Shown: positions 5,786 to 24,349, counted from the first letter of the stretch. The stretch is DNA of 25,058 bases from an uncultured Lachnospiraceae bacterium (GCA_964390095.1 CAYMGZ010000004.1:1-25058), one strand, 5' to 3'. The notes: a model not told the origin generated them from the sequence alone. Made by a program: numbers and translations.

Positions 5786-6007
5786 TCACTGCCTCCTTTT
5801 CACATCATCCAACCCAAGCAGGTAATCTGCCGATACATGGTAGAGCTTGCACAGCAGGATTGCTTTTTCCAACGGCAGTGCGTTGCGCCCTGTCTCGTAC
5901 CGGGAGTATACTCTCTGGTCAATCTGTAGGTAGGCGGCCACTTCCTTCTGCCTTAAGTCATTGTCCTCCCTCAGTTCCCTCATAATATTTTTATAATCTT
6001 TCTCCAT
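5786..6007 (-). CDS. Small XRE family HTH protein (73 aa) overlapping the end of the CIS ATPase gene
   Basis: MEKDYKNIMRELREDNDLRQKEVAAYLQIDQRVYSRYETGRNALPLEKAILLCKLYHVSADYLLGL. A GGGGG RBS precedes ATG 6007; 17-nt overlap with the ATPase gene. Confidence 0.88.
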   Translation of the reverse strand: MEKDYKNIMRELREDNDLRQKEVAAYLQIDQRVYSRYETGRNALPLEKAILLCKLYHVSADYLLGLDDVKRRQ

Positions 6008-8018
6008 CGGAATATCCCCCCGTGAATTGTAGCCTTGTTTCATCCTTACCGGCCTCAAGTTCCAAAGCTTCCCGGACAATTTCCCTTGTCATGCGGCCAC
6101 CCCCACCGCACGAGGCAAGCAGCTTTGCCACCTGCGCCGCAGAATAGATCCGGGCAGGGCTTAAACTTGCCGCGCGTGCCAGTTCCGCGTAAGAAAGGCC
6201 GTCTTCCAGCAAAAGCCCCCCGGATAATGCCTTTTCCCACAAAATCTCCCTGCCTTTCTCGTCCGGCATGCGGAAGCGGATGACAAACTGGATCCGCCGG
6301 ACAAACGCATCGTCAAAATGCCCCATCAGGTTGGTTGCAAGCACAAGCACACCGCGGTACTCCTCCATCCTCTGGAGCAGATAGGCGGTGGATACATTGG
6401 CAAAGCGGTCGTGGGAATCCTGGATTCCTGTCCTTTTGGCAAACAGCGCATCCGCCTCATCAAAAAACAGCACGTAAGAACCGCGCTCCGCCGCGCGGAA
6501 AATCGCGTCGATATGTTTCTCCGTCTCCCCGATGTATTTGTCAAAAACCTGTGACAGGTCCACTTTATAAAGCGGGCGGGCAAGCTCCTTTGCAAGGATG
6601 GATGCCGCCATTGTCTTCCCGGTTCCGGAACTCCCGTAAAACAACATCTGCAGCCCCTTTTTGCCCGTCCATGCCTTTGCGAGCCCAAGCACGGTCTTAA
6701 GCTGCTTTCTGCAATCCGGGTCCAATACAATTTCATCAAGCCCCGCGCGTTCCTCCACAAGCCTCCCAAGCCCTATCTCCCCCATCCTGTCAAAAAGGAC
6801 TTCCTCCCACATCTCTTTTTCCCGGAGGGATGCATGCCCCGCAGCCGCCCGGATGCAAAGCGACCGGCAGGCATGGGCAAGTTCCCCGATATTCATATGG
6901 AATCTCCCAAGCAGTTCCTCCTGCCATTCCTGCCGCTCCTCCTGCCGGATCCACGCATCGAGTGCCTCCTTCCGCACCCCTGCCGACAGTGTTTCCGCAA
7001 GGAACAGCTTCATATCCGCGATTTTCTCTGCACACCCGGCTTCTTTTATATCTTCCGTCAAAAAAATAAGCTTCCCTTCCGGAAATTGCTCCGTCATCTT
7101 TATCAGGAACTCCTCCCCGCCCGGCGCGAAAACGGCATTTTCCCCGGACATTTCAAACGCTACCACGGGTGTGAGCAGCCGGTAAAGAAAGCGCAGGGTC
7201 TGCACAGCCTCTCCTCTTTCGCGTTCCCCGTACCCTTGCAGGCGCGAAAGGCGCACAAAGAGCAAATTCCTGCATGCCTCCTCACACGCCCGCTGCAATA
7301 GTGTATGCTTGCCGCTCCCGCGCCCGCCATGCAGCAGGACGGACAAGGGAAGCGGATCTTTCAGATAGCGCACAAGAAGCAAATATTCCTTTCCATGGAG
7401 CGGCAGATACTTTCCGCATGGTTCCATATACGGTAAACACCAGGCTTCTTGCTGCCCGCACCTCTCCCTGGGGTATCCTTCTTTTTCTGCCGCACGCGGT
7501 GTAAATAATGTATACCATTCCTCCTGCGGCACCCTGCCGGTAAGCAAAAAATAAAACGGCGCACGGTTAAGAAGCAGAGGGCGCGTCAAACAGCCCCCCT
7601 CGCCCGTCCCTTCCCGGCACAGGTTTAAGAGGCTGCCCAACGCGCTCTTTGTGTCAAACAGTTCCCCGATCATCTGAAAATCGACCGGCAGCACGGGCGA
7701 GAGCAAATGCAGCGCATACTGCACGCTCGGCCATTTTTCACGGTATTTCTCCCGAAAGCCAAGGCAAAGGCCTTCCTCCACCTCACAGCAGAACGCGAAC
7801 AGCAAAAGCCAGTACCCTGTCCGGTCAAGCCCGAAACATTCCCTGAGGTATCTTGCGGGCAGGAAAATCCGGGAAGCCATCTCTTTCTCCTCCACCCGCT
7901 GGATCTCCCCACAGAAAGCCCCGTCCCCGTTTTCTCCCTTCCACTCCTGCAGCCGCAAAAAAAATTCAATACAATCCCCTATATGCTCCTCTACAAAACG
8001 GTAGCCTTCCCTTTCCAT
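5991..8018 (-). CDS. CIS AAA+ ATPase (Afp15/Pvc15-like)
   Basis: C-terminal AAA: LFYGSSGTGKT, YKVDLSQVFDKYIGETEKH, LFFDEADALFAKRT...DSHDRFAN, YLLQRMEEY, LATN, DDAFVRRI. A degenerate first AAA carries the Walker A LLHGGRGSGKH. Confidence 0.9.
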   Translation of the reverse strand: MEREGYRFVEEHIGDCIEFFLRLQEWKGENGDGAFCGEIQRVEEKEMASRIFLPARYLRECFGLDRTGYWLLLFAFCCEVEEGLCLGFREKYREKWPSVQYALHLLSPVLPVDFQMIGELFDTKSALGSLLNLCREGTGEGGCLTRPLLLNRAPFYFLLTGRVPQEEWYTLFTPRAAEKEGYPRERCGQQEAWCLPYMEPCGKYLPLHGKEYLLLVRYLKDPLPLSVLLHGGRGSGKHTLLQRACEEACRNLLFVRLSRLQGYGERERGEAVQTLRFLYRLLTPVVAFEMSGENAVFAPGGEEFLIKMTEQFPEGKLIFLTEDIKEAGCAEKIADMKLFLAETLSAGVRKEALDAWIRQEERQEWQEELLGRFHMNIGELAHACRSLCIRAAAGHASLREKEMWEEVLFDRMGEIGLGRLVEERAGLDEIVLDPDCRKQLKTVLGLAKAWTGKKGLQMLFYGSSGTGKTMAASILAKELARPLYKVDLSQVFDKYIGETEKHIDAIFRAAERGSYVLFFDEADALFAKRTGIQDSHDRFANVSTAYLLQRMEEYRGVLVLATNLMGHFDDAFVRRIQFVIRFRMPDEKGREILWEKALSGGLLLEDGLSYAELARAASLSPARIYSAAQVAKLLASCGGGGRMTREIVREALELEAGKDETRLQFTGGYSDGERL

Positions 8019-8065
8019 ACGATCCTCTTTCCGACATAACTCCCCAAAATGTATCCTTTATCCCT

Positions 8066-22658: not shown

Positions 22659-22700
22659 GAAAAAAAGTAGGGCTTTGTAAAATCACAACAAGCCCTACTT
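22659..22700 (-). terminator. Intrinsic terminator after the DUF4157 effector gene
   Basis: Minus strand AAGTAGGGCTT (22700-22690) / AAGCCCTACTT (22675-22665) perfect 11-bp stem, running into a T-tract and starting 17 bp after the stop codon. Confidence 0.8.
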
Positions 22701-22717
22701 CCGTATTTCTTGATCTG

Positions 22718-24349
22718 CTACTGCAAAAAGGCATCCATAATCCTCAAATACAGATCATTTCCCATATCCTCCGCCATTGCTGTATCCACTTCGTTTTCCG
22801 CGTCCTCTTCCTCTGCCGTATCCATTTTGTTTTCCGTGTCCTCTTCCTCTGCTGTATCCATTTTGTTTTCCGTGTCCTCTTCCTCGGTATACGTCAATTC
22901 TGTATCATCAGATTCCGAATCTGTATCATATTCCGTAGTTGCTTTCGCTTCCTTGCTTCTCTGTACTGTCACATGTGTTTTAACTTGCAAACGGATTCCT
23001 TCCGCCGCCCTGACAATACTTTCCGAATCCATATATACCCCGGAAGCTATGGAATCCCAAAATGGTCCCCTGCGTATGCTGCCCGTATCCCCTGCGGAAA
23101 AGCAGGCATACGCACAAGCGAAGCAACAGCGCCTTATGCCGCCAAGATATTCCGGGCGCAGCCACAATTTCCCTTCGTCCACAGTCAGCGCACCTGCCCG
23201 AACCATTGCATTCTGCCGCTCTTGTGGTTCATGCCTCAGAAAATTCAGGATTCTTTGCTCCGCATGGGCGTTACTGACACTGACATCCCCGACGATCCAA
23301 ACGGCGATCTGGGCGAAAGCATACCCTGAATGCGCAAGATTGCCAGAAATCTGATATATATGCTGCATATGCCTTCTCTGCCGCCTCGTACTCCCTGCCC
23401 CGTAATCTATCTCAACCTTTCCAAGCTGCCGTCCAAGCTTTGAAATCTCCGTGCTGAAATTTGTGGAAACAAGAATCCGGCGGCTGCTCTTGTCGTAATA
23501 GCATTGGATCTCACCGTTTATTTTATATATCACAGACAAAAAAGTAGAAAGCCAGCGCAAGTAACGGTGGATATCCTCACCCGCATCATACTCCCTCGGT
23601 TCTCTCGCCCCATCCCTGTCCCTGTACATCTCATACAATCGATTTCTTACCCTGCGGTCTCCCAGGTCGTTTGTTGTTCCTGGAGAGTGGAGGGTATGGT
23701 TGCGGCATCCTCCGTATGAATACATTTTTTTATCTGCCAGCCAGAGCAGATAAGCATACGACGCGGTATCAACACAAGAATCCCGCAACGGCCCCTCCCC
23801 CTCCCGCGCATCGGCCAAAAGCATAGCGGTTTCCTCCGCGGTCGGGGAAGGCGAAGGGGTTTCCCCCTCCTCATCCCCTTCTTCGCTCCATTCGCCCGTT
23901 TCCTGCCGGTATCTCCACTTTGTCCGCTGAACCGGGGCATCTTGTCGCACAGACATCCCCGTGCCATAACCAACCTCCGCCAGGGCGGGGGCATCGGGCA
24001 TTCTTTCTGCCGCGGCAGCCAAAAAATCCGCCTCGCGCTCCAGCAGGGCATTGTCATTGACTGCTTCCCCGTTCCGAAAATAATCCGGTTTTACCCTCCC
24101 CTGCTTCTGCTGCACCACATGCCCCAATTCGTGCCCCAGATATTTTTCCTGCCCGGATGCAATATAGACCTGGTTTCCCTGTGTATATGCGTATGCCTTC
24201 CTCTGCGCAGGCGCACCGGAGTGGTAATGGACGCGCACATCCCCAAAAGACAGCCCTGACAAATCCTCAAACTGCTGTTTCATCCGGTCCGGTATCCCGG
24301 TCGGATTTGTCCGTTTCTTCATCTTTGGACGATTTTCGTGCGCATACAT
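22718..24349 (-). CDS. DUF4157 (eCIS-core) protein with a C-terminal putative Zn-dependent deaminase toxin domain and acidic tail
   Basis: N-terminal TGIPDRMKQQFEDLSGLSFGDVRVHY...AYAYTQGNQVYIASGQEKYLGHELGHVVQQKQGRV...LEREAD, then PVQR. C-terminal RILVSTN...HAEQRIL...YLGGIRRCCFAC. RBS AAAGGGGG. Confidence 0.85.
   Translation of the reverse strand: MYAHENRPKMKKRTNPTGIPDRMKQQFEDLSGLSFGDVRVHYHSGAPAQRKAYAYTQGNQVYIASGQEKYLGHELGHVVQQKQGRVKPDYFRNGEAVNDNALLEREADFLAAAAERMPDAPALAEVGYGTGMSVRQDAPVQRTKWRYRQETGEWSEEGDEEGETPSPSPTAEETAMLLADAREGEGPLRDSCVDTASYAYLLWLADKKMYSYGGCRNHTLHSPGTTNDLGDRRVRNRLYEMYRDRDGAREPREYDAGEDIHRYLRWLSTFLSVIYKINGEIQCYYDKSSRRILVSTNFSTEISKLGRQLGKVEIDYGAGSTRRQRRHMQHIYQISGNLAHSGYAFAQIAVWIVGDVSVSNAHAEQRILNFLRHEPQERQNAMVRAGALTVDEGKLWLRPEYLGGIRRCCFACAYACFSAGDTGSIRRGPFWDSIASGVYMDSESIVRAAEGIRLQVKTHVTVQRSKEAKATTEYDTDSESDDTELTYTEEEDTENKMDTAEEEDTENKMDTAEEEDAENEVDTAMAEDMGNDLYLRIMDAFLQ
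22779..22886. repeat. In-frame 36-bp tandem repeat (3 copies) encoding the acidic tail of the effector
   Basis: Unit GC(T/C)GTATCCATTTTGTTTTCCGTGTCCTCTTCCTCT at 22779, 22815 and 22851; encodes EEEDTENKMDTA. Confidence 0.93.

Follow-up and report, generated by a model that had tools for sequence, protein, structure and literature searches.

We analysed a contractile injection system (CIS) locus on a 25,058-bp stretch of DNA from an uncultured Lachnospiraceae bacterium (GCA_964390095.1, CAYMGZ010000004.1). This stretch, called the window here, is an entire contig (C4) of a fragmented metagenome-assembled genome (MAG; 3.38 Mb, 611 contigs, N50 7.2 kb, about 81% complete, 50.8% GC). The listing of open reading frames (ORFs) revealed a cluster of 18 tightly packed ORFs on the minus strand, running from 24349 down to 5991, and the GC content of the cluster was 54.2% against 50.8% for the MAG. 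In the order of transcription, the first half encodes a DUF4157 cargo protein, a Cis13-like protein, a Pvc16_N cap, a DUF4280 protein, a sheath, a gp19 tube, a chaperone, a DUF6760 protein and a second gp19 tube. The second half encodes a 139-aa protein, a CIS_tube protein, a gpD hub, a gpV spike, gp25, a 695-aa protein, a J-like protein, a Cis12-like protein and an AAA+ ATPase. The original prediction had described 17 intact co-oriented genes; the orientation, the coordinates and the intactness were confirmed, but the count was 18, and a small XRE gene overlapping the end of the ATPase gene comes in addition to these. The locus almost certainly encodes a complete, intact CIS, and this CIS is of a known kind that is common in gut Clostridia.

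The sheath gene (Cis2, 17905..19782; coordinates are those of the window, and all cluster features lie on the minus strand) is present in a single copy and encodes 625 aa with matches to Phage_sheath_1 (2e-21) and Phage_sheath_1C (8e-16). A 42-nt tandem repeat of 2.4 copies (19363-19464; Tandem Repeats Finder, TRF) in the variable outer domain encodes a Lys/Asp/Gly/Ser-rich stretch, and because of this repeat the sheath is 30-40 aa longer than those of its relatives. The major tube protein Cis1a (17446..17877) matches Phage_T4_gp19 (E 1e-44) and CIS tubes in the PDB, and it is 90-97% identical across the close clade of relatives, the range being 87-97% over the about 25 genomes with the full gene order. 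It is followed by a G-like tail assembly chaperone of 122 aa (17054..17422; PHROG 508, E 4e-9), the DUF6760 ORF (16878..17057; PF20546, E 1.5e-15) and a second tube-family protein, Cis1b- or Cis5-like (16434..16865; gp19 family, E 1e-10). The slot of a tape measure is occupied by a small helical protein of about 135-139 aa (16052..16459), which is 41-74% identical in relatives and is kept only in the close clade. The tail terminator or cap (Cis16/Afp16/Pvc16, DUF4255; 20352..20918) matched Pvc16_N above the cut-off (E 4e-15). The PAAR-like spike tip (DUF4280, 19888..20273; PF14107, E 8e-24) has 127 aa if its start is the ATG at 20271-20273, as suggested by a start scan and by the 127-aa genes of the relatives.

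The genes of the baseplate begin with a CIS_tube-family protein (15414..16076; PF19266, E 3.5e-20), a putative tube initiator or hub adaptor. The hub of the gpD / VgrG-Pvc8 family (14310..15392) has no spike domain; its Phage_GPD match (E 9e-6) is below the Pfam cut-off, and it also matched the tail protein family PHROG 52. The central spike (13419..14222; Phage_base_V, E 2e-10) combines a gpV/gp5 oligonucleotide-binding (OB) fold with a beta-helix, and the gp25-like sheath initiator or wedge Cis9 (13043..13408) matched GPW_gp25 (E 1.5e-21). Two large wedge proteins come next, namely a Cis11a-like protein of 683-695 aa (10949..13036), 27% identical to Cis11a of Halogeometricum borinquense (E 1e-6), and a baseplate J/gp6-like Cis11 of 607 aa (9119..10942), which matched TIGR02243 in its N-terminal part (E 2.6e-27) and Streptomyces Cis11 (PDB 9GTP_1K, E 1e-16). 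In the related locus L003 (17651-21808), the two Cis11-like genes were found to be fused into a single 1385-aa ORF. The Cis12-like baseplate protein (8124..9125) carries a P2 gpI / gp7-like tail domain (CIS12_fam 1e-13, TIGR02242 5e-10), and the Cis13-like peripheral baseplate or fibre-like protein of 539 aa (20894..22513) matched NCBIfam CIS13_fam at its N-terminus; the CIS12 and CIS13 matches are partial and far below the family cut-offs. The Cis15/Afp15-like AAA+ ATPase (5991..8018; AAA, E 1.5e-29) probably acts in assembly or cargo loading, by analogy with known systems. A promoter-like site of its own (8093-8066) was noted by consensus scan only in the 105-nt gap upstream of the ATPase gene.

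Profile assignments from Pfam, NCBIfam and PHROG reached 16 of the 18 cluster genes, and only the 139-aa and 695-aa proteins had no family in these libraries. The families that had been proposed for checking, Pvc16/DUF4255, DUF4157, Phage_sheath_1, T4 gp19 and CIS_tube, were all matched. An extracellular CIS (eCIS) has been defined operationally by a minimum of 10 core genes, among them one or more of Afp12, 13, 14 and 16, and by not being a phage, a type VI secretion system (T6SS) or a pyocin (PMC8213781). As far as genes go, the cluster fits this definition, with at least 12 core genes, Pvc16_N above its cut-off, the DUF4157 marker and an Afp15-type ATPase.

The ORF lengths of the cluster agreed with those of the relatives, and no decay was seen. 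The dN/dS values against the related loci L004 and L020 ranged from 0.03 to 0.23 across all 16 genes tested, with 0.03 for the major tube, 0.14 for the tape-measure-slot protein, 0.20 for the cargo and 0.23 for the 695-aa protein. All 16 tested genes, including the two family-less proteins, the Cis13-like protein and the cargo, are under purifying selection. These data agree with the earlier statement that no frameshift decay is visible, and the profile matches, the synteny with relatives and the purifying selection together support the complete parts list.

In a search of PDB sequences, the codes of which were traced to papers, the best solved match of the sheath was 9EZM, Cis2 of H. borinquense (395 bits, E 4e-117, 36% identity over the full length). 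The Streptomyces CIS sheaths 8BKY (E 1e-103) and 8BL4 (E 5e-101) followed with 342-351 bits. The sheaths of the Photorhabdus virulence cassette (PVC), the Serratia antifeeding prophage (Afp), the Anabaena thylakoid-anchored CIS (tCIS), AlgoCIS and a Salmonella eCIS matched in their C-terminal part only (1e-34 to 1e-55; 160-189 bits for Afp/PVC), and the pyocin sheath 3J9Q (6e-17) and T4 gp18 (3J2M, 6e-10) were much more distant. The original prediction of a system more like that of Streptomyces than like Afp/PVC, made from the gene order, was upheld by the sheath scores, and also by the sheath tree described below, although the haloarchaeal sheath is nearer still.

These values also bear on the reading of the locus as a remnant myophage tail or an R-type tailocin. 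Myophages also have the families of the sheath, tube, gp25, V and gpD proteins, and PHROG tail families matched the cluster. However, the best matches are not ordinary myophage tails, because the sheath lies 40-100 orders of E-value nearer to CIS than to pyocin or T4. Pvc16_N, DUF4157, the Cis15-type ATPase, DUF6760 and DUF4280 are all present, and every tested gene is under purifying selection. Head, integrase, lysis and tRNA genes were absent from the 25-kb contig, which extends 0.7 kb upstream of the cluster, and no capsid, packaging or replication genes adjoined the cluster, either here or in relatives on contigs of 60-1380 kb. The absence of head and integrase genes had been noted before and holds for the flanks of the contig as well as for the long contigs of the relatives. 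Head, lysis, integrase and tail-fibre-chaperone genes were found neither here nor beside the relatives' clusters. A prophage tail or tailocin was rejected on the sheath similarity, the CIS-specific genes and the missing head and lysis genes, and we regard it as extremely improbable.

A maximum likelihood tree of 82 sheath rows was built with a quick search; its deep branches are long and their order is unsure. The window sheath falls into a 25-row Acetatifactor/Lachnospiraceae clade (SH-aLRT 100), which is nested in a 63-row Bacillota clade (SH-aLRT 100) that also holds an Acutalibacteraceae sheath. The Actinomycetota, among which S. clavuligerus grouped with Actinomycetota MAGs, and the haloarchaeal sheath lie outside the Bacillota clade, while the Afp and Parabacteroides sheaths form long outgroup branches. 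As judged from sequence relationships, the locus belongs to the Bacillota branch of subtype-II CIS, the broad group of haloarchaeal IIa and Streptomyces IId systems. Three Clostridia-type sheaths labelled Bacteroidota (L008, Muribaculum; L035, Bacteroidaceae; L040, Paludibacteraceae) were nested among Bacillota in the tree. These labels likely reflect mis-binning, and a recent transfer is possible.

The sheath search returned thousands of homologues, and those with 58-76% identity came from Lachnospiraceae and Acetatifactor MAGs. The source DNA itself recurs in rat-gut metagenomes of at least 8 studies, and a Clostridia-type gut origin, as originally predicted, is supported by both observations. 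The full gene order is common to about 25 Acetatifactor/Lachnospiraceae species-level genomes. A second clade with 46-53% sheath identity and the same core order includes the cultured human-gut isolates Laedolimicola ammoniilytica, Anaerosacchariphilus hominis, Hominiventricola filiformis and Ligaoa zhengdingensis. Only a few cluster genes were matched in [Clostridium] asparagiforme, Enterocloster aldenensis and Clostridium sp. chh4-2. With one genome per genus, a sheath at E <= 1e-50 was detected in 31 of 300 Lachnospiraceae genera, and the sheath of a congeneric species was only 46% identical to that of the window. These findings point to patchy, horizontally moved islands.

The genes around the clusters also differ. 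A CapD-like gene lies upstream here and in the related loci L001, L004 and L020, whereas L003 has a flippase locus and a LytTR gene, L103 a LytTR regulator, L102 restriction-modification (RM) and HEPN genes, and L104 unrelated genes. A link of the system to polysaccharides was considered for the CapD-like and flippase neighbours and was rejected, since they occur in some relatives only; because the neighbours vary, such a link is a local and not a system property. In the flanks of five relatives, the only recurring genes were the XRE gene after the ATPase gene and the DUF4157 genes, and no conserved membrane gene was found there. The LytTR gene lies directly upstream of the Cis13-like gene in L003 (6423-7085) and L103 (6559-7260), where its product may regulate the cluster specifically, as a feature of some members of the lineage.

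The Cis13-like protein and the 695-aa Cis11a-like protein are the most divergent and fastest-evolving structural proteins, with 33-48% identity in the roughly 25 close relatives. The CIS13_fam match of the former (1.5e-12, below the cut-off) covers the first ~117 residues, and the protein is 35% identical to an ORF upstream of the H. borinquense sheath gene. Its AlphaFold2 (AF2) model (mean pLDDT 73.8) shows an N-terminal domain resembling Cis13, TssK and the shoulder of receptor-binding proteins (RBPs), Ig-like beta-sandwiches that were predicted very confidently, a proline-rich linker and a small C-terminal beta domain. The VIA comparison gave the RBP of phage 1358 (Z 8.7), TssK (Z 7.5), the tCIS chain 7B5H_AA (Z 7.5) and tailspike C-terminal domains (Z 6.9), and the PDB matches returned by Foldseek, Ig-like domains and a chain of the phi812 baseplate, had low TM scores.

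The chaperone and DUF6760 genes recall the G and GT proteins of phages. DUF6760 is encoded in the -1 frame relative to the chaperone gene, with an ATGA overlap at the junction (17054-17111), and the slippery heptamers T_TTA_AAT and A_AAT_TTT occur in register at 17069..17078, 19-22 nt before the chaperone stop. A_AAT_TTT was present in register at this distance in 50 of 59 distinct Bacillota relatives, compared with a share of 0.043 expected from codon usage, while the synonymous sites around it vary; no p-value is given because the relatives are not independent. A more distant clade lacks a start codon at the junction, and its -1 frame becomes open only some nine codons upstream. Conservation of the chaperone extends to haloarchaea (50% identity, tblastn to pHBOR03, E 1.6e-37). 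Taken together, these sequence features suggest that the chaperone and DUF6760 are probably made as a phage G-T-like fusion by programmed -1 frameshifting, and possibly DUF6760 is also made alone from the ATGA overlap.

The first gene of the cluster (22718..24349) encodes the putative cargo or effector of 543 aa (eCIS_core/DUF4157, PF13699, E 1e-11). The DUF4157 domain occupies aa 19-84 and contains a HELGH (HExxH) motif, and it is followed by a linker, a divergent deaminase-like domain (~aa 190-465) and an acidic tail. At the very C-terminus, three copies of a 36-nt unit (93% matches; 22778-22885, TRF) encode acidic 12-aa repeats. The deaminase-like motifs are H362-A363-E364 and C409/C412; all 43 aligned homologues (26% mean identity) keep HAE and CxxC unchanged, and in the AF2 model (pLDDT 90.9) these motifs open two helices (184-193 and 231-237 of the model), as do the zinc and catalytic motifs H[AC]E and PCxxC of the CDA deaminase superfamily. 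The match to OTT_1508_deam (E 0.0075) was below the cut-off, that to dCMP_cyt_deam_1 was also weak, and 9 of the 43 homologues of the domain matched deaminase families, again weakly. Foldseek found no significant match of the domain model in the PDB, and the VIA scores to deaminases were Z 3.1-3.9. The matching clusters of the AlphaFold database were named 'eCIS core domain', 'DUF4157' and 'CMP/dCMP-type deaminase', the last with E 3e-7 and a TM score of 0.42. We favour a divergent toxin domain of the deaminase superfamily with reasonable, though not high, confidence.

Close homologues of this C-terminal domain are rare, with four in a search of 5.8 billion proteins, and an exhaustive HMMER search collected 82 representatives. 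Many of these have the domain at the C-terminus of polymorphic-toxin-like proteins of 600-5,500 aa, and one has it behind another eCIS_core; among ten homologues, the N-terminal domains matched eCIS_core in one and no Pfam family in the others. It may represent an undescribed clade of deaminase-like polymorphic toxin domains. DUF4157-linked deaminase toxins are known in eCIS, namely EAT11 (PMC8213781). The cargo gene begins 21 nt after the same-strand CapD-like gene, an arrangement also seen in L001 and L004, while in L020 the CIS follows the CapD-like gene directly without a cargo gene between them. The slot after the CapD-like gene thus holds the cargo gene as a variable insert. In L088 and L092 the DUF4157 gene lies downstream of the ATPase gene instead of upstream of the cluster as here, and the MAG contains one DUF4157 gene and one sheath gene, without additional cargo or sheath genes. 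Between the cargo gene and the structural genes there is a spacer of 204 nt (22514..22717), in which the ORF list shows no immunity-sized ORF and a consensus scan alone indicated a terminator-like hairpin and two weak promoter-like sites.

By analogy with characterised systems, the particle would be built as follows. The baseplate would consist of gp25, the two Cis11-like proteins, the Cis12-like and the peripheral Cis13-like protein around the gpD hub, the V spike and the DUF4280 tip, and the CIS_tube/LysM-like protein would initiate the tube. The tube and sheath would then polymerise with the help of the G/GT-like chaperone pair produced by the -1 frameshift, and Pvc16 would cap the particle. 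The ATPase would aid assembly and the loading of the DUF4157-tagged cargo with its deaminase-like C-terminus. For delivery, which is the weakest step, we infer that lysis of a producer subpopulation would free the particles in an eCIS-like manner, the variable Cis13-like/Cis11a-like periphery would bind another gut cell, and contraction would drive the spike and cargo into it.

The nearest characterised system, slightly ahead of those of Streptomyces, is the H. borinquense CIS ('archaeal T6SS', clade IIa, pHBOR03, PMC11566945). Both share a core of sheath, tube, chaperone (50% identity), DUF6760 and second tube, and a baseplate of a LysM/CIS_tube protein, a VgrG-Pvc8-type hub, a separate V spike, gp25, two Cis11 and Cis12. 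A Cis13-like ORF upstream of the sheath gene, DUF4255, the AAA ATPase and DUF4157 proteins are also shared. The V spike matched its pHBOR03 counterpart with E 6e-18, the Cis12-like protein a 'phage tail protein' with E 1e-12, and the ATPases are 44% identical. The window hub matched the 'VgrG/Pvc8 family' gene, and the CIS_tube protein matched the LysM gene, being the counterpart of the LysM proteins in both the Halogeometricum and the Streptomyces clusters. On the other hand, the Halogeometricum system is archaeal and plasmid-borne, its genes form two separate subclusters, and those for the cap and the ATPase are on the opposite strand. Its tip is a true PAAR protein and it has several DUF4157 genes, whereas the window has DUF4280 and one DUF4157 gene, and its envelope is an S-layer in contrast to the thick peptidoglycan wall of the host of the window. 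It also has a conserved membrane protein thought to anchor the machine, of which a homologue was not found for the locus.

This similarity raises the alternative of a contact-dependent machine like the haloarchaeal 'T6SS', in which the baseplate docks at the cytoplasmic membrane via its Cis11/12/13 periphery and firing is directed outward, across the wall, into a neighbouring cell in contact with the producer. The nearest solved sheath is that of this machine, and the separate hub and V spike, the two Cis11, Cis12, the Cis13-like ORF upstream of the sheath and the DUF4157 cargo are held in common. Bacillota were also reported as the closest relatives of haloarchaeal Cis11 (PMC11566945), and the structural leads from the Cis13-like N-terminal domain to TssK agree with such docking. 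However, two transmembrane (TM) proteins upstream of the pHBOR03 cluster, candidates for the reported anchor Hbor_38620, gave no tblastn match (E <= 0.01) either in 80 related loci or in the MAG, a search that would miss distant homology. A hydropathy scan found no TM segments in any cluster protein, and signal peptides were also absent. Moreover, it is difficult to see mechanically how such a machine would fire across a thick Gram-positive wall, a point that PMC10066040 also raises. We therefore consider membrane-anchored outward firing to be distinctly unlikely.

The CIS of Streptomyces coelicolor and S. venezuelae (IId; 8BKY, 8BL4, 9GTP; PMC10066040, PMC12237407) share a Gram-positive host with the window system. 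The order of sheath, tube, chaperone, small overlapping ORF, tube, LysM, spike, gp25 and Cis11 resembles that of S. clavuligerus, and neither system has a conventional tape measure or lysis genes. In Streptomyces, however, a single VgrG-like fusion (612 aa in S. clavuligerus) provides both hub and spike, while the window has a hub and a V spike as separate proteins. Afp13 is missing from the Streptomyces clusters, which rely on the TM adaptor CisA, while the window has a Cis13-like protein and no TM protein, and the window sheath lies outside the Actinomycetota IId clade, with SH-aLRT 100 for the separate Bacillota clade.

These relatives suggest another function, in which a cytoplasmic CIS fires under stress inside the producer, with or without transient membrane docking, and releases its deaminase-like cargo into the cytoplasm of the producer as a regulated cell-death or abortive response. 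The Streptomyces CIS are the second-closest solved relatives with a similar gene order, and they have been documented as cytoplasmic mediators of cell death (PMC10066040). The absence of lysis genes, signal peptides and TM proteins from the cluster would agree with this function, as would the lack of an immunity gene beside the cargo, since a suicide function would need none, and the RM and HEPN defence genes adjoining the L102 cluster. Nevertheless, the hydropathy scan found no CisA-like TM adaptor in the cluster, the rest of the 81%-complete MAG not having been searched with CisA. A Cis13-like protein is present, although the Streptomyces clusters were reported to be without Afp13 (PMC10066040), and the Bacillota sheath clade stands apart from that of the Actinomycetota. 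The fast-evolving periphery and cargo and the patchy distribution are what would be expected of an inter-cellular weapon. On balance, a self-directed cytoplasmic CIS is unlikely, yet it deserves more weight than membrane-anchored firing.

Compared with these systems, the Afp of Serratia entomophila and the PVC of Photorhabdus (clade Ia; 6RAO, 6J0B) are more distant. They share the tube, sheath, gp25, J-like protein, the equivalents of Afp12/13/15/16 and a toxin cargo with the window. They differ in having three sheath paralogues against one, in the sheath match being limited to the C-terminal 180-260 residues, and in their gene order, adenovirus-like fibres and large Afp14 ruler; they also come from diderm hosts and are aimed at insects. 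The eCIS catalogued in Bacillota have the phylum, the overall type and the DUF4157-marked cargo in common with the window, and they are known from bioinformatic catalogues. These include the system of Ruminiclostridium cellulolyticum H10 with the toxin EAT12 (PMC8213781) and the subtype IIb of Acutalibacteraceae (bioRxiv 10.1101/2025.07.29.667580); unlike these, the window locus belongs to a distinct Acetatifactor/Lachnospiraceae subclade.

Returning to extracellular release, the features that favour an outwardly directed weapon are the predicted Ig-like and tailspike-like distal domains of the Cis13-like protein at the fastest-evolving periphery, the patchy distribution, the variable contexts and cargo positions, and the recurrence of the cargo domain in polymorphic-toxin-like proteins. 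Several observations weigh against it. Gram-positive tailocins normally carry a lysis cassette, but none was found on the contig or beside the relatives' clusters, and the host is a thick-walled monoderm. The ORF list shows no immunity gene adjoining the cargo gene. The VIA scores of the Cis13-like protein are all Z <= 9.2, within the range reachable by chance arrangements, and are leads only. No RNA runs holding the DNA of the source locus were found, and neither transcripts nor particles of the exact locus have been seen. Four rodent-gut RNA libraries hold contigs of relatives, one of them 19,970 nt long and collinear from the XRE gene to the cap gene, with only conserved genes passing the 80% likeness filter; these contigs are weak evidence of transcription because DNA carry-over is possible. 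The original prediction had cited the marker genes as eCIS hallmarks, and the markers are indeed present, but they do not show extracellular action; the nearest characterised systems act from inside the cell, the Halogeometricum machine being membrane-anchored (PMC11566945) and the Streptomyces machine cytoplasmic (PMC10066040). Unlinked lysis or anchor genes may lie elsewhere in the genome, as the MAG is only 81% complete.

Considering both sides, we place the extracellular route slightly short of an even chance, and the whole explanation, a functional CIS together with the delivery favoured here, is about evenly balanced. We also consider that the Bacillota CIS may use a mode that is new for monoderms, either anchorless membrane-docked outward firing or a Streptomyces-like self-directed death device in non-filamentous gut commensals that are strict anaerobes. 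In either case, it would be combined with a deaminase-like cargo without an adjacent immunity gene and with a phage-conserved frameshifted chaperone pair. This proposal is tentative and, in our estimation, somewhat doubtful.

The genes outside the 18 ORFs are of an ordinary type. The XRE-family helix-turn-helix (HTH) gene (5786..6007, minus strand; HTH_3, E 4e-13) overlaps the ATPase stop codon, and its product is 75-78% identical to the counterparts found directly after the ATPase genes in L088 and L094; it is likely a local regulator. Upstream, the contig holds the C-terminus of the CapD-like gene in only 0.7 kb of sequence. Downstream there are ordinary chromosomal genes, which encode a NusG paralogue, a second XRE protein, an epimerase, AraC, ThuA and GFO/IDH proteins. 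The gene for the NusG paralogue (LoaP/UpxY-like, 5102-5765) is located a short way downstream of the CIS, with only an XRE gene and an epimerase gene after it. It has a perfect-consensus sigma-70-like promoter (TTGACA, 18 nt, TATAAT).

Examples of CIS from Proteobacteria, Bacteroidota, cyanobacteria, Streptomyces and haloarchaea have been characterised, and Bacillota dominate the mammalian gut. In the literature open to search, we found no characterised CIS from Bacillota, and none from Lachnospiraceae or other gut members of the phylum had been studied experimentally, in line with the earlier statement that no Lachnospiraceae example has been characterised. The present data show that gut Lachnospiraceae widely carry an intact CIS lineage that is under purifying selection, and a close sheath is present in about one in ten of their genera. 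The locus raises the questions of how a phage-tail syringe works in a thick-walled anaerobe, whether its target in the gut is neighbouring bacteria, protists, host cells or the producer itself, and how a deaminase-like cargo is tolerated without an adjacent immunity gene. Because cultured relatives carry the lineage, the mode of CIS action in monoderm gut anaerobes is now testable, and the lineage could widen the set of programmable protein-delivery particles.

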